Shown: positions 3,363-60,665 of the stretch, piece by piece | How the letters are laid out: every line of letters starts with the position of its first letter | Numbering within the stretch: the first letter of the stretch is position 1 | Virus record (IMG/VR): IMGVR_UViG_3300044797_000318 | Span: 32,001-96,000 of that record | Length of the DNA: 64,000 nt | From: a virus | Direction: 5' to 3' (one strand) | The notes under the pieces: generated by a model | Told to the model about the DNA's origin: nothing | Seen by the model: only the letters and a program-made list of their open reading frames with translations | Database searches by the model: none | Program-made: the position numbers and the translations under genes

Positions 3363-3890
3363 TCAATGACATGAGCACTTTTTATATTTCTTCCCAGAAC
3401 CACAAGAACACGGTTCATTGGGACCAACCTTAGCGGCTTTGACGACCGTAACAGGGGTGGGCACTTTTCGATCCATGAATAAAGTAGAGTTGAGGTGATC
3501 TAACTCGTGTTGACAAACCACAGCCACCAATCCGGTCGCCACAAAACTATGAGGCTCTACTAAATTATTAGAAACATGTATTTCTTGAAATCGAATAGTA
3601 TTTTCTAAACGACCAGGAAAAGATAAACAACCTTCCTCTTCAAAAAGGGCTGGGTCGAATCCTGATAGGAGCTTAGCATTAATTAAATTTAAACTAATCT
3701 TAGGTAATCTAACAATGGCAATATTCTTGGCAAGACCTATTTGTGGCGCTGCCAAACCAATTCCGGCACGACCAATCCTATTACCGTACTCTAATTCTTT
3801 TTCCAAAGCTTCAATAAGTGCTCCCGCTTCTTCTAAGAGAACGGGCTCACAAATTACTCGAAGGGCCGCTTCATTGTTAGTAATAATCAT
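3363..3890 (-). CDS. def: peptide deformylase with C-terminal SEC-C motif
   Basis: GIGLAAPQIG, EGCLS and QHELDHL motifs; C-terminal KVGPNEPCSCGSGKKYKKC. Confidence 0.93.
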   Translation of the reverse strand: MIITNNEAALRVICEPVLLEEAGALIEALEKELEYGNRIGRAGIGLAAPQIGLAKNIAIVRLPKISLNLINAKLLSGFDPALFEEEGCLSFPGRLENTIRFQEIHVSNNLVEPHSFVATGLVAVVCQHELDHLNSTLFMDRKVPTPVTVVKAAKVGPNEPCSCGSGKKYKKCSCH

Positions 3891-3910
3891 CTCTTACCTA
3901 TATCAAACAA

Positions 3911-4108
3911 TTATTTTTTGCCGCAACCACAGCCCTTAGTACGGGGAGGGGAATTCTGTATTCTTTTCAAACAAACAGTGCAAATATGGTCCTTAGCGGA
4001 ACATAATTCACAGATAACCGCAATATTAACTACCACGGCTCCCTGACAGCGATGACAAGTTTTTTTAGTATATACAAAAGCTAATTTACTACAACCGCTG
4101 CACATCAT
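3911..4108 (-). CDS. small Cys-rich (zinc-binding) protein
   Basis: four CxxC pairs. Confidence 0.6.
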   Translation of the reverse strand: MMCSGCSKLAFVYTKKTCHRCQGAVVVNIAVICELCSAKDHICTVCLKRIQNSPPRTKGCGCGKK

Positions 4109-10432: not shown

Positions 10433-12232
10433 TTACGCATTCGCGACCCGTAAGGGCAGAGCCCCGAGATTAACAGTATTTCTGCACTTTGGAAATCCAG
10501 AACATCCTAAAAACTTATCACCTGTTTTAGTCGTGCGAACTGACATTGGGCTTCCACACTTGGTGCACATCTCGGCACCACGACCTAAATATGCCTTGTC
10601 CAATTCCTTCTTGAATTCTGGGAAAAACTTTTTTAGCATATCGATATGATTTATTTTACCACATTCAATTTCATCCAGTTGATTTTCCATCTTGGCGGTG
10701 TAATTATAATCCATAAAAGTGAAGAATTGAACTAATTCATCGGTAATTTTTTTACCTAAATCAGTAGCATGGAAAACGCTACCCTTCTTCTCCACATAGT
10801 TACGAGTCGTAATTTTGCTAAGAAGCTCGGCATAAGTAGCGGGACGACCAATATTTTTATTAACTAGTTCTTTGATTAACTTATCTTCGGAGTATCTTGG
10901 AGGGGGTTGGGTTTGTTTCTTTTCCATCTGGACAGGAATTTGTCCAAAGAGTTGACAAACATCACCCATCTGTAAAAGCGGTATTTCGATCTTAGAGTTA
11001 TCTTCAATACCCAAGATTTCCAAAAATCCTTTTGTCTTGATAGCTTTACCCGAAGTCTGGACTTTGGTTTTTTTGTCGTTCTGAACATGTGCAGTCACCC
11101 TAAGTGTATCATAAATGGCTGGCGACATCTGGCTAGCCACAAAATGTTTCCAAATGGTTTCATATACCATTTTTTCATCTGGATCAATAATTGCAAAATT
11201 ATCTTTGGGCAGCAGTGTTAGATCGGAGGGGCGGATGCATTCATGAGCATCCTGGGCCGCATCTTTGTTCTTGTAGACTGGCGGTTTCGTTGGAATAGCG
11301 TACCTATTAGCAGTCAGCCAAGCACGAACTTCTTGCACTGCCTCTTCACCTACTCTGACAGAATCTGTTCTAATATAAGTACAATAGCCTGCCTCATACA
11401 AACTTTGAGCAGCTTTCATAGTACGGTCTGCCGACATACCATGTTCTTTGGACATGATGCGTTGAAGTGTAGAAGTTACCAATGGCGGTTGAGGGTACTT
11501 AGCTTCTGCATCAGAGGAAACTTCAGAGATAATATATGATTTTCCGCTCAGGGCAGCCTGAGCGGCCATAGCAGTTTTCTCGTCAGTGGGACGACCAACA
11601 TATTTAGTGTTGAACCCCATCTTACCATCTTTTGACAAGACAACCTGAATAGTCCAAAACTCTTCTGGAATAAATGCTTCGATTTCTCGTTCACGATCAA
11701 TAACCATACGAGTAACTACCGATTGAACACGGCCGGCCGACAACTTGGGACCAAAAAAGTTCATCAAAAATGGGGATGCCATAAATCCGACCAGACGATC
11801 CAATATACGACGAGCTTCCTGAGAATGAAAGAGGTTCATATCAATGTCCCTCACGTCTTTCACGGCTTGTTGCAATTTAGCCTTTTTAATCTCGTTAAAG
11901 ACCATGCGCTTAATAGGCTTACCCGTATCGGCCAAACGTTGAGCAAGGTGCCAAGCAATAGCTTCTCCTTCACGATCAGGGTCGCTTGCTACAAAAATTT
12001 GATCAACTTTTTTAGCAGCAGCCAATAAAGCATCTAGGGTATCTATCTTATCTTCCATTAGAACATAGTGTGGTCGAAAGTCTTTTTCGACATCAACCCC
12101 TAAACCAAATCGTCCACCTTTAGCCAAATCTGTAATATGGCCCTTGCTGGCTAATACGCTAAAATCCTTACCCAGATAAGCTTGAATTTTTTCTGCCTTG
12201 GCTGGCGATTCTACAATCACGAGAGTTTTCAT
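10433..12232 (-). CDS. topA: DNA topoisomerase I (type IA)
   Basis: LVIVESPAKA, ASDPDREGEAI, SAGRVQS, TYIRTDS catalytic Tyr, GRPATYA; C-terminal C4 zinc ribbon. Confidence 0.97.
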   Translation of the reverse strand: MKTLVIVESPAKAEKIQAYLGKDFSVLASKGHITDLAKGGRFGLGVDVEKDFRPHYVLMEDKIDTLDALLAAAKKVDQIFVASDPDREGEAIAWHLAQRLADTGKPIKRMVFNEIKKAKLQQAVKDVRDIDMNLFHSQEARRILDRLVGFMASPFLMNFFGPKLSAGRVQSVVTRMVIDREREIEAFIPEEFWTIQVVLSKDGKMGFNTKYVGRPTDEKTAMAAQAALSGKSYIISEVSSDAEAKYPQPPLVTSTLQRIMSKEHGMSADRTMKAAQSLYEAGYCTYIRTDSVRVGEEAVQEVRAWLTANRYAIPTKPPVYKNKDAAQDAHECIRPSDLTLLPKDNFAIIDPDEKMVYETIWKHFVASQMSPAIYDTLRVTAHVQNDKKTKVQTSGKAIKTKGFLEILGIEDNSKIEIPLLQMGDVCQLFGQIPVQMEKKQTQPPPRYSEDKLIKELVNKNIGRPATYAELLSKITTRNYVEKKGSVFHATDLGKKITDELVQFFTFMDYNYTAKMENQLDEIECGKINHIDMLKKFFPEFKKELDKAYLGRGAEMCTKCGSPMSVRTTKTGDKFLGCSGFPKCRNTVNLGALPLRVANA

Positions 12233-27371: not shown

Positions 27372-27388
27372 GCCAACTTATATATCAC

Positions 27389-28955: not shown

Positions 28956-29399
28956 TTATTTAACATCAATACCATAATCACTCAAAATAGAAATGTCAAG
29001 CGTCCATTGTTTTTTAGAACGTTTCGCCCAAATCTTAAAAGATTGTTGAATATGTTGCTCGGCTTGTTTATTAGTCCAACCATTGACTTTCATCAAATGT
29101 TGTTGCGCCCGTTTCTCTTTGCCCTGCACCCGTGCCAAACCAAAATGACATACCTGATGACAACTTTTGCATAGAGCTATTAGCCCAACTAATTTTTGAA
29201 TTGACTTGCCTTCATCATAAGACCAGCGCTCATGACAATCGTGCGCCTCGCCTTGGCAAATTTGACAAATATCATAGGCTTGTGAGCGAACTTGTTTTGA
29301 GAGAGAAGCCCATTGGGCACGAGTCAAAATAGCCCTGACATTGGAGCCGAATGCAGTGGCTGGCACTAAATCTAATGAAAGAAGAATATTGTTATTCAA
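28956..29399 (-). CDS. HNH endonuclease-like protein
   Basis: CQIC...CHERWSY...LIALCKSCHQVCHFG. Confidence 0.8.
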   Translation of the reverse strand: MNNNILLSLDLVPATAFGSNVRAILTRAQWASLSKQVRSQAYDICQICQGEAHDCHERWSYDEGKSIQKLVGLIALCKSCHQVCHFGLARVQGKEKRAQQHLMKVNGWTNKQAEQHIQQSFKIWAKRSKKQWTLDISILSDYGIDVK

Positions 29400-29562
29400 A
29401 TTTGCTTAGCTTATAGGAAAGAGAATACAGTTCATTTTGCAAGACAACGGTAGAAATGGTCTTGCCATTGGCATCTGCCATTTTGGATAGGCCGGTCTTG
29501 TGCCTATTTTCTAACTCCTCTCGGAGTTCTTTCATTCTTGCTTGAATTTCGGATCGAGTCAT
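29392..29562 (-). CDS. hypothetical 56-aa protein
   Basis: Manual ORF MTRSEIQARMKELREELEN...; GATATATA-N6-ATG. Confidence 0.6.
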   Translation of the reverse strand: MTRSEIQARMKELREELENRHKTGLSKMADANGKTISTVVLQNELYSLSYKLSKFE

Positions 29563-29583
29563 CTTGCCTATATATCGTTTTAT

Positions 29584-29658
29584 TGGTGGGTTGTATGGGG
29601 GTCGAACCCATGACGTAGGATTTTAGAGATCCCCGCTCTACCACTGAGCTAACAACCC
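29584..29658 (-). tRNA. amber-suppressor tRNA(CTA), tRNA-Lys-like body
   Basis: GGGTTGT TA GCTC AGTGGTA GAGC G GGGAT CT-CTA-AA ATCCT ACGTC ATGGG TTCGACC CCCAT ACAACCC A CCA. Confidence 0.9.
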
Positions 29659-29665
29659 ACTCTTC

Positions 29666-29821
29666 TTATTCTGTTTTATCGGCAGACTCAGGAACAAGAG
29701 GAGTAACGGACTCCATCAATTCCTTCTTTCGTTTTTCCATCATTTCATCCCAGGCTCGGATACCAAAACCAACAACAGTACCACACACTAATGACAATAA
29801 AAATAACTCAAATAACCACAT
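29666..29821 (-). CDS. small membrane protein
   Basis: MWLFELFLLSLVCGTVVGFGI hydrophobic N-terminus; GGAG RBS. Confidence 0.6.
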   Translation of the reverse strand: MWLFELFLLSLVCGTVVGFGIRAWDEMMEKRKKELMESVTPLVPESADKTE

Positions 29822-29833
29822 ATTAATTCTCCA

Positions 29834-30802
29834 TTATGAAAGTTGCATCATTCGATCAATAGAAACACGAGCCCTGTTCATCAAATCTTTCGACATAATG
29901 ATCTGGGGCGACAGATCCCTCAAAGAAAGATATACCTTTTCCAAGGTATTCTTCCTCATAAACGGACACTCATTACAAGCGCAGCTGGCTTCGGGAGGGG
30001 CCGGTATGAAAGTTTTATGCGGAGCTGCTTTCTGCATCTGGTGCAAAATACCCGACTCGGTAGCCACAATAAATTCGTTGAATGGGCTTTCCACAGCAAA
30101 TTTGAGAATGCCCGTAGTGGAAGAGATATGATCCGCCATTTTGAGAATAGGTTCTTCACATTCGGGGTGGGCCAAAATCTTAGCGTTGGGATATCTTGTC
30201 TTCAAGCCAATCAGTTTGCGTTCGCTGAAAGTCTCATGAACAATACAGCTTCCTTGCCACAGGGTCATGGGTCGACCCGTTTTCTTGACCAAGTAATTTC
30301 CTAAGTTCTTATCCGGGGCAAAGAGAATGTTCTTGTCACCCGGAATGGCATTGACAATCTTCTCGGCATTGGAAGAGGTGCAAATGTAATCGGAGAGGGC
30401 CTTGACTTCCGCTGAGCAATTGATGTAGCTAATGACCACCGAATTGGGATGCAGACTTTTCCAAGCGGCAAATTTATCGGCAGGACAACCATCCGCCAAA
30501 GAACAACCAGCTTCCAAATCAGGTAGCACTACTGTTTTTTGTGGGCTGAGGATTTTAGCTGTCTCGGCCATAAAATGGACACCGGCAAAACATATGACAT
30601 CGGCATTGGTCTTGGCAGCTTGTTGAGAAAGTTGCAAGCTATCCCCAATGAAATCGGCCACATCTTGGATTTCGGATTCTTGGTAATAATGGGCTAAGAT
30701 AACGGCATTGCGTTCTTTTTTGAGCTTAGCAATCTCTTTTTCTAAATCGAGAGAAGGATCGATATGTTTATCATTCTTCATCAGCGATAAGTGTGTTGTC
30801 AT
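29834..30802 (-). CDS. nadA: quinolinate synthase
   Basis: [46 protein letters not shown]. Confidence 0.97.
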
Positions 30803-30955
30803 CGTACTTCTCCAAGAATTGCTCTATTGCTGCTTGTAAATCTTCTTCTGATTTATAATATTCTTCATTAGACACATTTGCCCCATCAGACCAACAAGCC
30901 CCCAAATATCCGGCCCGATATGCCTGAATGACAAGTATCGCAAGTTCTTTTTCAT
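30771..30955 (-). pseudogene. small ORF apparently requiring a -1 shift at ATG AAA AAG
   Basis: The -1 frame reads KELAILVIQAYRAGYLGACWSDG...[17 protein letters not shown]; the zero frame from ATG 30955 stops earlier at TAG. Confidence 0.45.
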
Positions 30956-31272
30956 TATTCTTTTTCTTTCAACAACTTTTTGATATCGTTGGACAGGATA
31001 TTATGAGCTGCCGCATCTTCCCAGCGGGCCATTTCCCAAGCAATGCATTGATCCAAGTTCAATCTGATTTCTACTTTGACTTCGGAAAGAACTAAATGCA
31101 GCAGCTTGAACTGCTTCGATTTTTCCAACAGATTGTCATAGGTCAGTCTTTCGTTGAGATATTCTCGGGGCAGCTCTCCGAAGAATGCTACATACTTCTC
31201 CTGCGAGATTTTCCAGGGGTGCTTCTTGCGAACATTATCCGCAATGACGTGTAGGAGTTCGTGCTTATTCAT
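30955..31272 (-). CDS. hypothetical protein
   Basis: ORF in array. Confidence 0.65.
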   Translation of the reverse strand: MNKHELLHVIADNVRKKHPWKISQEKYVAFFGELPREYLNERLTYDNLLEKSKQFKLLHLVLSEVKVEIRLNLDQCIAWEMARWEDAAAHNILSNDIKKLLKEKE

Positions 31273-31275
31273 AAA

Positions 31276-31500
31276 TTACCAGAAAGCCTTATTGCGTTTA
31301 TATCTCTCCGCTTGCTCATTAGTATAATAAACATCATCAATGGCCCAGGTTTGAGAAGGTATATCCAAAATAACATTACAATTATCGCAACCCAACTGTG
31401 AGGCAAATGTAGTAATTTTATCTTCATCATATCGATATGTAATCACAAACATAAGGCCATTACATTTCGGACAATATCTGGGACAATCGGAAATTTTCAT
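31276..31500 (-). CDS. small zinc-ribbon protein, KAFW C-terminal family
   Basis: CPKC...CDNC; ends AERYKRNKAFW. Confidence 0.7.
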   Translation of the reverse strand: MKISDCPRYCPKCNGLMFVITYRYDEDKITTFASQLGCDNCNVILDIPSQTWAIDDVYYTNEQAERYKRNKAFW

Positions 31501-31501
31501 T

Positions 31502-31575
31502 TGGCGCCTCCAGCGAATTCTGACATCGCACGGTCCTTTTTAGAGAAGGATGCTCTTCCTTTGAGCTATGGAGGC
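31502..31575 (-). tRNA. amber-suppressor tRNA(CTA) with non-canonical T-arm
   Basis: GCCTCCA TA GCTC AAAGGAA GAGC A TCCTT CT-CTA-AA AAGGA CCGT GCGAT GTCAGAA TTCGC TGGAGGC G CCA. Confidence 0.85.
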
Positions 31576-31579
31576 ATTA

Positions 31580-31930
31580 TTATTTAATATTTCTGAGTGC
31601 CAATTGCAATTTGCTACACAACTTTTTGGACTTGGGGCCCGGGGACAAAGCAATGGCAGTAATCTGATCCTCTATATCCGGCTCCCTAAAAATAGAGAAA
31701 TGAATATCATTGGCAGCCGCTTGTTCAATTAATTTAGTTAGTTCCTGCTCATCAGCCACTGACAAGAGGCCTAAATAATTAGATTGCTTATACCAATGCT
31801 CGGCATACTCTGGATGCTCGAACACAAATTGGATACCTGCGTGTAGTGATTGGACGGCCTGATAACCCTCTTCCAAGTCTTGGCGAGTAATAACATAAAG
31901 TTTATCGCCTTCTTTGATCTATAAACTCAT
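31580..31930 (-). CDS. PTH2-family peptidyl-tRNA hydrolase with in-frame TAG at codon 4 (31919-31921)
   Basis: GGAG RBS then ATG AGT TTA TAG ATC AAA GAA GGC GAT AAA CTT TAT GTT ATT ACT CGC CAA GAC TTG; motifs KLYVITRQDL, GYQAVQSLHA, FREPDI...TAIALSP. Confidence 0.85.
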
Positions 31931-32511
31931 TTTTTATCTCCAAATAATTTTTGGCAGATCGCTCTGCCTCGTTTGTCGATTTGCTTCCACTTGATCTTGA
32001 AAGAAGTGGATTCCAAACCTCCGAAAAGTTTTGAATTGCTATGCACCTCGGCCAATCCCGCCAACAATAAAGTGACGGCCTCGGGATGTTGAATGAACTC
32101 TTCAATCTCGTCAGCTTTGATAGTATGAATTTTCATATCCCAACGAATGAGGTTGGCTACCGTTTGATTGGTGCTGACTGTTTGCCAAGTCTGATGAGAC
32201 ATCTCGGAATGATTAGGAAAATGTCTGCGGCCCATTTCATCAATGGTCAGACAATAAGGTTTTCCGCAATCGTGAAAAATAGTATATTCCTCGATAATAT
32301 CTTCGGGGAGTAATGCGGCTAATAATTGTTCTCGATACTCCGACATCCAGGTGGGCAATCTCCAACCCTGGCCAATGTGGTTCGTCTTCAAGAAAGAAAT
32401 CAAATCGAAAATGTGCTCCTTGACGGAGAGACCGTGCTGATACACGGATTGGGTGTCCGTTTGAGGGCAGGCTTGCATATCAAGAATTAGTTGGTTCTAT
32501 AAATGGCTCAT
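31927..32511 (-). CDS. HD-domain phosphohydrolase with in-frame TAG at codon 5 (32497-32499)
   Basis: ATG AGC CAT TTA TAG AAC CAA CTA ATT CTT GAT ATG CAA; SVYQHG...FHDCGKP...HFPNHSEMS resembles the HD domain of CCA-adding enzymes. Confidence 0.78.
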
Positions 32512-32518
32512 GACAGTG

Positions 32519-32526
32519 TATATATC
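32519..32526 (-). promoter_or_regulatory. GATATATA promoter-like motif 7 nt upstream of ATG 32511
   Basis: Same motif and spacing occur before ATGs at 6649, 22446, 23119, 27371, 35682, 36830 and 56675. Confidence 0.65.
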
Positions 32527-32553
32527 CTTTTATTGGTTGATTATATTCTCTAC

Positions 32554-33192
32554 TCATTTCTGAGTCCAAGTTTTATAATTTACGATATGACTTATATTTG
32601 ATCTATGTGTATTGAACAGTATTGCTAACTCTGCTTGGTTTGCTTCATCATTTTCATACATAGATCTAATCTTCTCTACATCAGCCCAAGTTAAAACTGA
32701 ATTGGCATGTTTCTCACCTAATTGTTTCCCCTTTTGGGCGGCGCTCATATTTTTACGAATTTTATCGGAAAACTTTTGACCAAAATTTTGGTTTCTTTCA
32801 CCCAAATGACTTTCCCTTAATTTGATTATTGTCTCTGGCTTTCGTTTTAAGCCATAATTTGCACTATTAATTCCTGAACCACTACCAAGCCCACCAACAG
32901 TTTCATTATATCCAAATTTTACATTTTTACTATTATAATAGGTAATCCAATAAGTTTCCGCCAAATAAGCTTCATCTTCATTGGAAAATGATTGGATTAA
33001 ACAAAAATCGAATTTATCAGCGCCATATTTTACTATAGCCGAATGTATAGCGTGAAATACTGTGGGATATTTTTCTTTTCCACCCTTGGCAACTCTTTTG
33101 TGCGTGATCCACCTATTGTGTAGATCATTAGTTTTACCAATGTAAAGTTTCCCATTAACAGTATTGAAAATCATATAAATATGAAATATCAT
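32554..33192 (-). CDS. GIY-YIG homing endonuclease with C-terminal HTH
   Basis: HIYMIFNTVNGKLYIGKT, GYNETVGG, GEKHANSVLT...ELAILFN. Confidence 0.88.
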   Translation of the reverse strand: MIFHIYMIFNTVNGKLYIGKTNDLHNRWITHKRVAKGGKEKYPTVFHAIHSAIVKYGADKFDFCLIQSFSNEDEAYLAETYWITYYNSKNVKFGYNETVGGLGSGSGINSANYGLKRKPETIIKLRESHLGERNQNFGQKFSDKIRKNMSAAQKGKQLGEKHANSVLTWADVEKIRSMYENDEANQAELAILFNTHRSNISHIVNYKTWTQK

Positions 33193-33195
33193 AAT

Positions 33196-33545
33196 TGGTG
33201 GACGGCAGGGGAGTCGAACCCCTGTCCAAAATGCGAAAAATCAAAAGTCGTTACAGGTTTGGTTGATTAATGTAACCAACAACATTTGTAAATATCGCTT
33301 TACTAGCTATCTACTGTTTATTTAGTCGCTAATTCCGTAGCCAAATTAGAAACGAGCTTTTGTGGGTTTATGCCTCTACCAACTACCAAAACAATCTTAT
33401 TGGAGAGACACCAATTAGGCTGCTAGAGCCATTGGGGCTGCGTTATCGTTTGCAGTTACGTTTGATTGTTTTTTTTATAGGGATACAATCATCCCTAACC
33501 TGCGTTTTAATCTTTCTTACACCTTGTCGAAACCGGGAGCCGCCC
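33196..33545 (-). ncRNA. ssrA: tmRNA, tag peptide (A)ANDNAAPMALAA
   Basis: 5' GGGCGGC pairs with 3' GCCGTCC-ACCA giving G3:U70; T-arm CAGGGGTTCGACTCCCCTG; resume codon GCA at 33453, TAA at 33415. Confidence 0.95.
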
Positions 33546-33585
33546 ATAAACTAAAACATCCAACTACATGGGAAGTAATCGGATA

Positions 33586-33659
33586 TGGAGCTAATGATGA
33601 GAATCGAACTCAGGTGACTGCGTTACGAATGCAGCGTAATACCACTATACGACATTAGC
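33586..33659 (-). tRNA. tRNA-Thr(CGT)
   Basis: GCTAATG/CATTAGC acceptor, loop TT-CGT-AA, TTCGATT, CCA. Confidence 0.85.
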
Positions 33660-33662
33660 CTA

Positions 33663-33875
33663 TTATTTTAGGCAATTTGTAGGATAACCCTTACAGTTTT
33701 TGATTATACTAATTGCCTCTAATCCTGCCCTTGGATTATCCCAAATCAATTTATCTACACTGTTATAAATGTTAATTCGCGCCTCTTCCCAAGAAGATGC
33801 ATAAGCTCTCATGTTCAAGGTACAAGGATTACCAACTTTATCTGTAAAATTATAAGAAAATTCATATAAATGCAT
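33663..33875 (-). CDS. hypothetical protein between tRNAs
   Basis: ATG 33875 immediately after the tRNA CCA. Confidence 0.55.
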   Translation of the reverse strand: MHLYEFSYNFTDKVGNPCTLNMRAYASSWEEARINIYNSVDKLIWDNPRAGLEAISIIKNCKGYPTNCLK

Positions 33876-33950
33876 TGGAGCTTTTTTCGGGAATCGAACC
33901 CGAGTCATTGTCGTACCAGGACAATATAATAACCATTATACTAAAAAAGC
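33876..33950 (-). tRNA. tRNA-Thr(GGT)
   Basis: GCTTTTT/AAAAAGC acceptor, TTGTC CT-GGT-AC GACAA, TTCGATT, CCA. Confidence 0.88.
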
Positions 33951-33951
33951 G

Positions 33952-34018
33952 TGGTAGCGGTCTCTCCCGCTTTGTCACGCCAATCTTGACGTTTAGCTAG
34001 TCTATTTCACCTAGTGAA
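33952..34018 (-). ncRNA. candidate small structured RNA ending in CCA
   Basis: hairpins ACGTCA-AGAT-TGGCGT and AGCGG-GAGAGA-CCGCT followed by ACCA; fills the gap between two tRNAs. Confidence 0.5.
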
Positions 34019-34170: not shown

Positions 34171-34895
34171 TTATTTTTCGGGCGTATGGTTAGCGGCAAC
34201 TGCCCTACAAAACTCAAATACTTGTTCATCTGTAAAATTATTTCTTGCATAATTAGCCATCAAACTAACAAATCTCACATTGCCCTGCATATATCCTATT
34301 GCATTATCAATTCGATCTAAACTAGCATTACGAGGATCAGTTGAGTCGAAACATACGTGGGCATTTTTAGGGAGTATTAATTGCCATCCAGTGATTGGGC
34401 ATATTCCTAATTGAGTCTCCCATATTTTTTTTAGATAAACGGGTGTAATATTCGGAATCTCTTTTCTATTTTTCTCTAAATCTCTTCGTTTTACTTGTTG
34501 CACAAATAATTTAAAAGAAGAGTATTCATCTTTTCTATTATCTGGCACTAAATTTTTACTATTATCTCTTGGATAATCTTTATTATTCTGAATACTGGCG
34601 CAAGAAAGATTACAAAAGAATTTTGTTTGACCTTTCTTTACAAGCCAATTATAATCTTTTGTTGATTTCTGAAAAAGAGATTTACAATAATCACAAATAA
34701 GATTTACCTTAGAATAATTGTTATTTTTACCTTTATTATTTTCATAATAAATTTTATCATAATTATGCTTAATTCCATACTGTTTGCGATATTCTTTATT
34801 ACAAGCCTTACACCAGCCACCTTTTATTTTAAATTGCGATGGAGAATATTCTAATTCTTCTTTTCAGATTTACATCTAGAACAATATTTTTTCAT
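34171..34895 (-). pseudogene. putative endonuclease with -1 frame break near 34861
   Basis: ATG 34895 MKKYCSRCKSE-AAG AAG AAT TAG; the -1 frame reads EELEYSPSQFKIKGGWCKAC... open through CPITG...SLDRIDNAIGYMQGNVRF to 34171. Confidence 0.75.
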
Positions 34896-35682
34896 CACTC
34901 AAACCATCTTGTCGAAAAATATCTACCCCACCATTTTTTAAAATATTGCTCAAAAAACTTGTATCCTTGGTAAAGATAGGTAAATCTGTATTGAGATGCC
35001 ATTTGTTCTTCATCACGCCATCTACTACTTTGGGGACTTTATAACAAGCTGTGCCGCGCCTAAAAGAAGAAGGGTAGTCTGCATATTTGATATTACATTC
35101 TTGATCCAATAAATCAATTTTCTCATCTACATTCAATCCAGTCAGCATCTCTTTGATATTATTCTTATCATACTTATTGAGTAAGTTATAGAGACAAGCT
35201 GATTGAATAGAAGTATGAAAGTTTTGTTGTTGCTTATAGATAAAAGTATTGGTGGCCTCCCCTAAGGAAGGGACTACAAAAACTTGTGAAGTAAAAACAG
35301 GAGCTCCTGCTAAATTGAGCCCCATAGCAGTAGCACACTCATTGAAGTGCATAGAGGCAATGGCCGAGGTAATGGAACAAATCTTTTGCAATTTGTTATC
35401 ATACCAAGGGGCAGTATCATTGCTTTGATCATTGCGGGTGACAATGACAATCTCATCATTGTGTTGATAAGCAAACATAGCGCCTTCAATGTCCGCGCAC
35501 AAACGCAGCATCGTAGAAAGCAGGCACTCGGCAAATTTGTGGCAGTATGGCTTGTCCAGGAGCTGCGTTACTTTGGCAAAAGCTCGCCCATTGATGCAGA
35601 TGATAATCGGCACTCGCGCCAGCAGTTTGTAATCAGTATTGTTCTGATAGGAATTGATCCTGTCAGCTAATTTATTTCCCAT
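34876..35682 (-). CDS. Thg1-like (tRNA-His guanylyltransferase family) protein
   Basis: PIIICINGRAFAKVT, YQHNDEI, WYDNKLQKICSITSAIAS, RRGT. Confidence 0.85.
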   Translation of the reverse strand: MGNKLADRINSYQNNTDYKLLARVPIIICINGRAFAKVTQLLDKPYCHKFAECLLSTMLRLCADIEGAMFAYQHNDEIVIVTRNDQSNDTAPWYDNKLQKICSITSAIASMHFNECATAMGLNLAGAPVFTSQVFVVPSLGEATNTFIYKQQQNFHTSIQSACLYNLLNKYDKNNIKEMLTGLNVDEKIDLLDQECNIKYADYPSSFRRGTACYKVPKVVDGVMKNKWHLNTDLPIFTKDTSFLSNILKNGGVDIFRQDGLSDEKILF

Positions 35683-58387: not shown

Positions 58388-58630
58388 CTAATCCTTTGTA
58401 ATAAGTAGACATAGAGCACATATAACGAGTGGTATGATGGTCGCCCAACTGATGGTAGTGTTGGTTCCCAGCGTCATAGCAATATGTCTGGTGTCTGGGA
58501 CATTTTCCCATAACCACCAATGTGATAAGAAGGCAAAACCACAGAAGATAACGGCTCGAATCATCCACCCAAAAAACATATGGACAAAGACAATAGCGCA
58601 TAACAAAATGATAGCTAAGGTAATGGTCAT
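58388..58630 (-). CDS. small membrane protein
   Basis: three hydrophobic segments. Confidence 0.65.
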   Translation of the reverse strand: MTITLAIILLCAIVFVHMFFGWMIRAVIFCGFAFLSHWWLWENVPDTRHIAMTLGTNTTISWATIIPLVICALCLLITKD

Positions 58631-60335: not shown

Positions 60336-60665
60336 CTAAAGGAACGCTTTATTGTTAATGGCCTTTTCCACTTCATCCAAAGTCTCAAATCGATGTCCAT
60401 CTAAAAGAAAACCATTCTCATCATAACTCAAAGTTTTTTGGAACTGGGTCAACAAAAACTCATACCTCTTACGCAAAACAAGATAATCAAAATCTTGATC
60501 AATCGCCTCTCTAAAATATGAGATATCCATATAATACCAAATATCATTGCTGATATTTGTATACAATGCATAGAACGCAGAACCAATTTTAGATAGACTT
60601 CTATTCTGTGCGTAATGGTCTAAAACTTTATATTCTTCTTTGGGAAGAAGGGCTATCTTTTTCAT
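60336..60665 (-). CDS. hypothetical protein, KAF(W/L) C-terminal family
   Basis: ends FETLDEVEKAINNKAFL. Confidence 0.65.
   Translation of the reverse strand: MKKIALLPKEEYKVLDHYAQNRSLSKIGSAFYALYTNISNDIWYYMDISYFREAIDQDFDYLVLRKRYEFLLTQFQKTLSYDENGFLLDGHRFETLDEVEKAINNKAFL

Follow-up and report, generated by a model that had tools for sequence, protein, structure and literature searches.

The prfB gene, which encodes release factor 2 (RF2), contains an early in-frame UGA from which ribosomes escape by a +1 frameshift, and it senses its own product. In lambda bar and other minigenes, open reading frames (ORFs) of 2–5 codons cause the drop-off of peptidyl-tRNA, which is cleared by peptidyl-tRNA hydrolase (Pth). 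In phages, stop-codon recoding and phage-borne suppressor tRNAs are proposed in a preprint to regulate late and lysis genes (Borges et al., bioRxiv 10.1101/2021.08.26.457843). Phage XacN1 carries two tRNA(CUA) genes, and its description states that reading through 18 terminal amber stops revealed nothing and that the targets were not identified (PMC5852040). Here we describe a locus in IMG/VR record IMGVR_UViG_3300044797_000318, a viral contig of 138,671 nucleotides (nt; G000), of which positions 32001–96000 (64,000 nt; hereafter the window) were analyzed. On the minus strand of the window, a predicted HD-fold gene and a predicted Pth2-fold gene lie side by side, each has an in-frame TAG close to its start, and a tRNA gene with the anticodon CUA follows. 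From comparison of related sequences, we consider it probable that both genes are translated only when a phage suppressor tRNA reads the stop. The locus comprises the following features (window coordinates).

32519–32526, minus strand: GATATATA motif, 7 nt ahead of the HD ATG, promoter-like or start-site-linked (spacing count)
31927–32511, minus strand: HD-fold gene (P0001), 194 codons, TAG at codon 5 (translation, structure model)
32497–32499, minus strand: in-frame TAG, HD codon 5 (direct reading and translation)
31938–31941, minus strand: ribosome-binding site, GGAG, with 7 nt between it and the Pth2 ATG (direct reading)
31580–31930, minus strand: Pth2-fold gene (P0002), 116 codons, TAG at codon 4 (Pfam, profile, model)
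31919–31921, minus strand: in-frame TAG, Pth2 codon 4 (direct reading and translation)
31502–31575, minus strand: tRNA(CUA), 71 nt plus encoded CCA, with an unusual T-loop, starting at 31575, 4 nt past the Pth2 stop (Rfam)
29584–29658, minus strand: second, canonical tRNA(CUA) (ARAGORN; Rfam, 66.3 bits)

An earlier note, made from the sequence of the window, had described two adjacent ATGA-coupled genes with early in-frame TAG codons and a tRNA(CUA) 4 nt further on, and every coordinate that it gave proved correct. The HD gene starts ATG AGC CAT TTA TAG (ATG 32511–32509, TAG 32499–32497, next ATG 32478), and its TGA stop (31929–31927) overlaps the Pth2 ATG as ATGA. The Pth2 gene starts ATG AGT TTA TAG (ATG 31930–31928, TAG 31921–31919) and ends with TAA (31582–31580). 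Without readthrough, both 5' ends are minigenes of the kind found in lambda bar (MSHL-stop and MSL-stop), and the downstream gene encodes a relative of peptidyl-tRNA hydrolase; unlike in lambda bar, a conserved long ORF continues in the frame of the minigene, and a suppressor tRNA that matches the stop goes with it. The locus also resembles prfB, in that an early in-frame stop in a translation-factor gene reports the efficiency of termination at that stop. In contrast to prfB, escape would occur via a dedicated tRNA, and feedback of the product on readthrough is only hypothetical here.

No ATG, GTG, or TTG lies between the Pth2 TAG and β-strand 1, and the next canonical start is TTG 31876. The protein matches Pfam PTH2 (PF01981) at 35.7 bits (cut-off 23) over residues 10–102, a match that begins ahead of TTG 31876. 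When profile A2 was compared with the Pth2 structure 2zv3 (E = 1.5e-9, full length), strand 1 (KLYVITRQDL) was aligned to residue 2. To the earlier note, the upstream Pth2 ATG looked real because of the GGAG and because strand 1 lies between the TAG and TTG 31876, and the alignment of this strand to a solved Pth2 is in keeping with this. All 11 close relatives share the TAG and retain the leader Leu by means of TTA, CTA, or CTT, and the six codons past the TAG differ among these relatives at six third, two first, and one second positions. To judge from these sequences, the region straight after the Pth2 TAG is coding. Diverged relatives in soil runs X2 and X4 have other sequence between HD and Pth2 (at 31930/31934; 310 nt in X4), indicating that the ATGA coupling is not universal.

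The model of the Pth2-like protein (predicted local distance difference test [pLDDT] score, 95.5) has the Pth2 fold, and Foldseek matched it to the archaeal and human structures 2zv3, 1wn2, 1q7s, 1xty, and 3erj with E values of 4.6e-7 to 1.7e-6 and template modeling (TM) scores of 0.71–0.79. Its scores against the NCBIfam Pth2 equivalogs lie far below the cut-offs (NF003314, 30.2 bits versus 126; TIGR00283, 20.6 versus 82). In the profile alignment, the phage family has EPD where Pth2 has DAG, and its GKGK loop is two residues short; Q23, H26, A27, E79, P80, and D81 are invariant within the phage family. Because of the low scores and the two differing active-site segments, we refer to the protein as Pth2-like and not as a Pth2 ortholog.

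The other protein had been named an HD phosphohydrolase in the earlier note, with a hint at the HD domains of CCA enzymes. The name stands at the level of fold and motif, and the hint fits the structural match described below, but no Pfam or NCBIfam model reaches its threshold. The AlphaFold model (pLDDT 95.8) has the all-helical HD fold, and residues 2–9 past the TAG form helix 1 (pLDDT ~96). VIA-align gave 3wfo_A residues 253–448 as the best structural match (Z 15.1; root-mean-square deviation 3.1; 155 residues aligned), followed at Z 8–10 by PgpH, PhnZ, PPX/GppA, OxsA, YfbR, and others; helical models often reach Z ~13 by chance in this program, and only the match at Z 15.1 stands out. A profile of the HD family found the same PDB entries (E = 1.2e-3), with an alignment across the FHDxGKP metal-binding motif. 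The H...HD...D motif is present, and H21, H75-D76, H96, D120, H124, E150, and H152 are invariant in 17 of 17 sequences. Searches with single sequences or with the model were less informative: there was no HD hit in Pfam up to E = 10, the best NCBIfam model was TIGR00277 HDIG (E = 0.075, 12.9 bits versus a cut-off of 27.6), PADLOC gave nothing above threshold, phmmer gave nothing meaningful against the PDB, and Foldseek of the model against the PDB gave only E ~1e-2. The sole library match was PHROG 14850, of unknown function.

The PDB title of 3wfo is "tRNA processing enzyme" and its molecule name is "Poly A polymerase"; we take it to be the Aquifex aeolicus class II CC-adding enzyme. In the E. 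coli CCA enzyme, the HD domain has phosphatase and 2',3'-cyclic phosphodiesterase activities. The phage protein thus resembles the HD domain of class II CC-/CCA-adding enzymes (PDB 3wfo–3wfs), which is its best structural match and with which FHDxGKP is aligned, and differs from these enzymes in being a stand-alone protein of 190 residues that lacks the nucleotidyltransferase head. As modeled, the protein can fairly be described, at the level of fold, as a free-standing relative of the HD domain found in class II tRNA nucleotidyltransferases.

The first 17 loci collected from other phages included 16 Pth2-like genes with a stop soon after the ATG (15 TAG and 1 TAA). A profile scan, in which the best 80 of 143 viral loci confirmed by tblastn were used and identical proteins were removed, gave 73 distinct sequences from 86 loci on contigs of large phages (designated below by L numbers). 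TAG-gated Pth2-like genes accounted for 61 of the 73 sequences, TAA-gated genes for one (L020), and TGA-gated genes for two (L127 and L129, a single lineage); four were gate-like with a possible alternative start, and five were ungated. In all 64 gated genes the stop lies 1–8 codons after the ATG (mode 2), with no ATG, GTG, or TTG between it and strand 1. The site of the stop is kept among sequences that are 29–78% identical, and the downstream frames are intact.

Suppressor tRNAs were called by ARAGORN within 3 kilobases (kb) of each gene. At every gated locus with a suppressor nearby (52/52), the type of stop was the one that the suppressor anticodon reads: 49 loci paired TAG with CUA, one TAA with UUA, and two TGA with UCA. 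In L020, the tRNA(UUA) overlaps the end of the TAA-gated gene. Four of the five ungated genes had no suppressor nearby. This agreement between stop and anticodon is the key argument for suppressor-dependent translation, and it speaks against a mere mini-ORF upstream.

In 63 of 64 genes a purine comes next after the gating stop (A 46, G 17, C 1), and a 3' purine favors amber suppression in E. coli. The earlier note had proposed to check in homologs whether the early TAG, the TTA-TAG context, and a CUA tRNA occur together. The early TAG and the CUA tRNA do recur together, but the TTA-TAG context is not general, as a Leu codon precedes the stop in only 12 of the 64 gated genes. Some Pth2-like genes (L006, L008, L076/77, L114, L128, and L133) contain a second, internal TAG. 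A scan of GTDB genomes returned only three contigs of metagenome-assembled genomes, one of which (425,361 nt) also stands in IMG/VR as a phage record, and we therefore treat the family as phage-borne. Right past the Pth2-like stop, L014 (~1752–1790) and L015 (~1764–1800) share a short frame, ATG-AAA-(CAC/AAG)-TTA-TAG-...-CGA-CCT-CCA-TAA, and no tRNA was called in L014 or L015; the frame could represent a further mini-frame with a TAG or belong to an RNA that escaped recognition.

HD-like proteins show a similar picture. We collected 17 relatives (42–78% identity to the window protein) on contigs of up to 447 kb. Eight have a TAG at the same site, 1–5 codons after an ATG, and one more has the TAG but a distant ATG; of the other eight, five are fused behind a Pth2-like domain and three are ungated. 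The ungated homologs (L008, L010, and L015) translate the residues that correspond to those after the TAG (xLIxDM). Among 90 loci, 29 bear an HD gene: 17 have their own TAG gate, two have a possible alternative start, seven are Pth2-HD fusions behind one shared gate (TGA in L127 and L129), and three are ungated.

On the window alone, the pattern could be due to chance. When we counted contig ORFs in which an ATG lies no more than eight codons upstream of the first in-frame upstream stop, the three stops gave about the same proportion (6/48 for TAG, 11/106 for TAA, and 6/51 for TGA). Conservation across phages eliminates chance as an explanation. The region is carried by contigs of independent soil and peat runs; over both TAGs the contigs of X5, an independent run, show no difference, and in the diverged run X4 (record 13) the HD TAG persists amid four differences. 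This agreement, in line with the confirmation of both TAGs for which the earlier note had called, indicates that the TAGs are not assembly errors. A megablast search of positions 29000–34000 against the phage collection gave no match.

The contig is 32% complete (CheckV) and is a fragment of a very large (giant) soil phage. ORFs cover 0.863 of the window under code 11, a share that rises to 0.912 when TAG is read as sense and to 0.910 when TGA is, and no 8-kb bin across the whole contig shows a TAG-specific gain in coding density. For G001, a complete relative of 447,763 nt, the corresponding values are 0.807, 0.832, and 0.846. Both the contig and G001 read as code 11. Membership in code 15 implies a low code-11 density that is restored by reading TAG as sense and many in-frame TAGs, and neither was found. 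We compared all stop-to-stop frames of G000 and G001, with TAG represented as X; 143 contig frames gave an alignment of at least 60 residues, and among these only HD and Pth2 have a TAG immediately before the conserved region in both genomes. The earlier note had inferred that two tRNA-related genes depend on UAG readthrough in a code-11 genome, and this comparison agrees with it, as do the early stops in 64 of 73 sequences and the 52 anticodon matches. Three further candidates for an N-terminal TAG (contig positions 11627–12187, 87980–88675, and 123630–125501) were rejected; in these, the conserved region begins 8–21 codons past the TAG, beside a normal ATG. G001 also has an HNH-endonuclease-like frame (G001:C1:330781–331506, plus strand) in which a TAG is aligned with a Trp shared by four paralogs on contig G000; the frame is a pseudogene or else holds a further suppressed codon.

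The phages do share some equipment with recoded phages, in which suppressor tRNAs are phage-borne and are often accompanied by RF2: the window contains two tRNA(CUA) genes, as does G001, which also encodes an RF2-type factor. Each of the complete relatives G001 and G003 has a gene for a full-length class I release factor, and that of G001 has SPF and GGQ motifs, which mark it as RF2-type and not a reader of UAG. On the 138,671-nt fragment we found no gene with an RF-1 domain, and the GlnRS/GluRS family (PF00749) was found in none of five phage records. The phage with locus L020 (G002; TAA gate, tRNA[UUA]) encodes a release-factor-like protein of 201 residues (G002:C1:412067–412672), which has GGQ and an RF1-like recognition segment with SPT instead of PxT and lacks the N-terminal domain; it may be a termination factor of altered specificity. 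TAG is rare as a terminator (10 of 185 ORFs on the contig and 29 of 647 in G001), and back-up stops after TAG terminators are not enriched: a TAA or TGA occurs within five codons in 0.30–0.34 of cases, the same as after TAA and TGA. In the window, three of four TAG-ended ORFs (34876–35682, 58388–58630, and 60336–60665, minus strand) have a TAA 0–2 codons beyond, a sample too small for a call of back-up stops, and the terminus of a Thg1-like gene reads TAG ATG TAA.

The adjacent tRNA was identified by Rfam (RF00005, 42.3 bits, gathering threshold 29; anticodon CUA); ARAGORN called no tRNA at 31502–31575, even with a lowered threshold. The single ortholog that we found (L004/L063) keeps the odd T-loop and has one compensatory change, U-A to G-C, in the anticodon stem. 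The second tRNA(CUA) of the window is nearest to the second tRNA(CUA) of G001. The internal TAGs of other Pth2-like genes fall in variable alignment columns (Q/D/E, E, A/D, and E/K), which are compatible with insertion of Gln, Glu, or Lys but are not decisive. Locus L018 contains a third tRNA(CUA) (3862–3963), whose variable region carries an additional arm or insertion of ~30 nt (Rfam, 62.1 bits; no ARAGORN call).

In the mechanism that we propose, ribosomes would initiate at the upstream ATGs and reach UAG three to four codons later. With host release factor 1 alone, termination would yield a tri- or tetrapeptide, whereas once the phage tRNA(CUA) was made and charged, UAG would be decoded as an amino acid, yielding the complete HD-fold and Pth2-fold proteins. 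With the stop so early, little would be wasted while the switch is off. Release factors are slow on very short peptidyl-tRNAs, which would give the suppressor tRNA a kinetic advantage. Since the genes are coupled by ATGA and each contains one UAG, production of the Pth2-like protein would probably depend steeply on suppressor activity; two serial gates on coupled genes would be expected to sharpen the response. The Pth2 fold is predicted to cleave the ester of peptidyl-tRNA or of N-blocked aminoacyl-tRNA, and an HD domain of the CCA-enzyme type is predicted to strip a phosphate or cyclic phosphate from the tRNA 3' end. As HD and Pth2 occur fused in both orders, the two proteins probably share one substrate or act together; a prediction of the HD and Pth2 complex gave no answer (score 0.00) and counts neither way. 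If the gating is real, the purpose that we tentatively favor is that the gate ties the supply of tRNA-cleaning enzymes to the timing and degree of UAG readthrough in the infected cell. A bolder reading, which we think unlikely, is that the suppressor tRNA together with the stop-gated enzymes makes up a self-contained feedback circuit, comparable to prfB but based on a tRNA, that both gauges and sets readthrough in the infected cell. In such a circuit both enzymes would act on the 3' end of the suppressor itself, deacylating it or editing its CCA, and regulation of these genes would be the main reason that standard-code large phages carry suppressor tRNAs.

Another explanation for the conserved stops is that ATG-x-x-TAG is a minigene of 2–9 codons, which could sense termination or peptidyl-tRNA stress, and that the enzyme is made by a restart at AUU, AUC, GUN, or the next ATG with no need for a suppressor. 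In 38 of 64 genes the gating stop is followed by ATT, whatever the position of the stop relative to strand 1, and in 56 of 64 by a codon for Ile or Val; the share of ATT is far above the values in the same genes, where Ile makes up 7.9% of residues and ATT 57% of Ile codons, and the TGA-gated lineage likewise reads TGA ATT. Catera (ATG TAG GTG) and L125 (TAG ATG) have start codons directly after the stop, and an invariant ATG lies seven codons past the HD TAG. However, the stop of an upstream ORF would have no reason to match the anticodon of the suppressor, and it does so at all 52 loci, including the TAA/UUA and TGA/UCA pairs. In 23 of the 64 gated Pth2-like genes the next codon past the stop is one that does not serve as a start (such as GTT, GTA, GGC, or AAC), and the codon after the HD TAG is mostly AAC or AAT. 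Moreover, if restarts were selected, canonical starts past the stop should be common, yet they are seen in at most four of the 73 sequences. We regard reinitiation without suppression as quite unlikely.

The two genes might instead be the recoded ones in this fragment of a genome that uses TAG as a sense codon throughout (code 15), with more such genes elsewhere. That the contig is so incomplete leaves room for them, and the relatives hold the kit for a code change, namely suppressor tRNAs and RF2; a few Pth2-like genes have a second internal TAG, and TAG terminators are depleted, as they are in relatives of recoded phages according to the Borges preprint. In the complete genome of G001, however, reading TAG as sense raises the coverage no more than reading TGA as sense, only two of the 143 conserved frames need TAG to be read, and the stops lie at codons 2–9 and are not spread along the gene, so that genome-wide recoding is very unlikely. 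We give practically no weight to decay or artifact, in which the genes would be pseudogenes or products of misassembly: annotators of Serratia phage BF and several related phages left the gene uncalled in GenBank, but the position of the stop is kept at 29–78% identity with intact frames downstream, both folds are predicted with high confidence, and contigs from independent runs are identical over the TAGs.

Several observations nevertheless count against translation that depends on the suppressor. The T-loop of the adjacent tRNA, GUCAGAA, has G at the usual T54 and A58, and this tRNA may work poorly. No isoacceptor close to either tRNA(CUA), from which its amino acid could be assigned, occurs among the 51 tRNAs of G000 and G001. 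Because TAG terminates 10 contig ORFs, strong suppression would be costly. The census sequences are mutually related, and the non-TAG cases represent two lineages only; 12 of the 61 TAG-gated loci have no tRNA(CUA) within 3 kb, and one ungated locus has a tRNA(UUA). The excess of ATT, together with the weak start activity of AUU, makes reinitiation after the mini-ORF possible, and in the Bxz1-like mycobacteriophages the GTG after the stop is the annotated start in GenBank. ATG 32478 encodes the invariant Met seven codons past the HD TAG and could start a protein that is short of only part of helix 1, which makes the gating of HD less certain than that of Pth2. The sole hint of RNA is one metatranscriptome contig of 238 nt (run X13) within the HD gene, which may be DNA carry-over.

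The suppressor-gated locus shares several features with the phages of Borges et al., as that preprint describes them: a phage suppressor tRNA, RF2 in relatives, silencing of a gene by an in-frame stop, and depletion of TAG as a terminator. It differs in that the genome reads as code 11 and only two genes are involved, which encode enzymes of tRNA ends and not structural or lysis proteins; the stop comes 1–8 codons past the start, the tRNA gene borders on the gated genes, and which of TAG, TAA, and TGA serves as the gate depends on the tRNA that the phage carries. The words "hydrolase" and "N-terminal" are absent from the text of the preprint. XacN1 is likewise a standard-code jumbo phage, in this case cultured, with two CUA suppressor tRNAs (PMC5852040). 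In contrast to that account, we find that its ORF364 is an HD-Pth2 fusion with ATG AAG TAG in frame ahead. No account of a Pth2 or HD gene gated by a stop turned up in a full-text literature search; supplementary tables may hold a mention. The earlier note knew of no such system. As far as the search goes, this stands for a dedicated gate at the N terminus of Pth2-like and HD genes in phages that use the standard code, but not for recoded stops as a translational regulator in phages, which are already published in the Borges preprint.

The same island contains two further features upstream of the HD gene, both of which are context only.

33196–33545, minus strand: phage transfer-messenger RNA (tmRNA), tag ANDNAAPMALAA (ARAGORN; Rfam, 126.8 bits)
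32554–33192, minus strand: GIY-YIG/NUMOD3 homing-endonuclease-like gene, between the tmRNA and HD (Pfam GIY-YIG, 5e-14)

The island also carries three tRNA-Thr genes, the Thg1-like gene, and NadA, and the order Thr-tRNAs, tmRNA, HD, Pth2, tRNA(CUA) recurs in L002, L003, L004, and L011. An ORF of 74 residues (31276–31500, minus strand), which is zinc-ribbon-like (CxxC...CxxC) and has no Pfam match, begins 1 nt past the CCA of the tRNA(CUA). The earlier note had pointed out that the HD ATG lies 7 nt past a motif, at the same spacing as in other genes. On the contig, GATATAT is followed by an ATG within 20 nt in 17 instances, six of which have a spacing of exactly 7 nt; four of these six are at starts of ORFs of 84–306 residues, and one of the six is the HD start. 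The motif also lies 7 nt before HD in L003, L004, and L011. GATATAT with an ATG after 6–7 nt is found at gene starts at 27386, 29576, 32526, 34295, 56690, and 73706 and at contig position 121208 (all minus strand); two instances lie directly behind tRNA genes, and the one at 34295 precedes ATG TGA. To judge from its sequence and position, the element looks like a −10-type promoter that would give mRNAs with a very short leader or none.

Cultured phages show the layout as well. When the phage records of GenBank were searched with tblastn, 243 of them gave a match. In Serratia phage BF (KY630187.1, 286,0xx–286,4xx; L143), the gene starts ATG ACG CAC TAG and a tRNA(CUA) lies 3.3 kb away, at ~289.67 kb; the Pth2-like gene is unannotated in this and several cultured Rak2-like jumbo phage records, and the TAG at codon 4 is likely the cause. 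The Bxz1-like Mycobacterium phage Catera (gp153) has ATG TAG GTG and a tRNA(CUA) 250 nt downstream. The Xanthomonas phages XacN1 and Xoo-sp13 have the reverse fusion, HD-Pth2, and the fused frame is preceded by ATG AAG TAG in XacN1 (ORF364) and by ATG AAG AAG TAG in Xoo-sp13, each with a Shine-Dalgarno sequence. Aeromonas phage phiAS5 has an ungated copy and no annotated suppressor tRNA within 3 kb.

As Serratia phage BF, XacN1, and the Bxz1-like mycobacteriophages are cultured carriers of the same design, the proposal is testable. One consequence for annotation is that gene callers miss or shorten these genes. If translation does depend on the suppressor, the locus would provide a concrete target for the suppressor tRNAs that many standard-code large phages carry and would be a minimal natural switch of the type "orthogonal tRNA plus gated gene," existing in three versions, UAG, UAA, and UGA. 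The layout is common to dozens of large phages, and it would join the control of termination by the phage to the maintenance of tRNA 3' ends.

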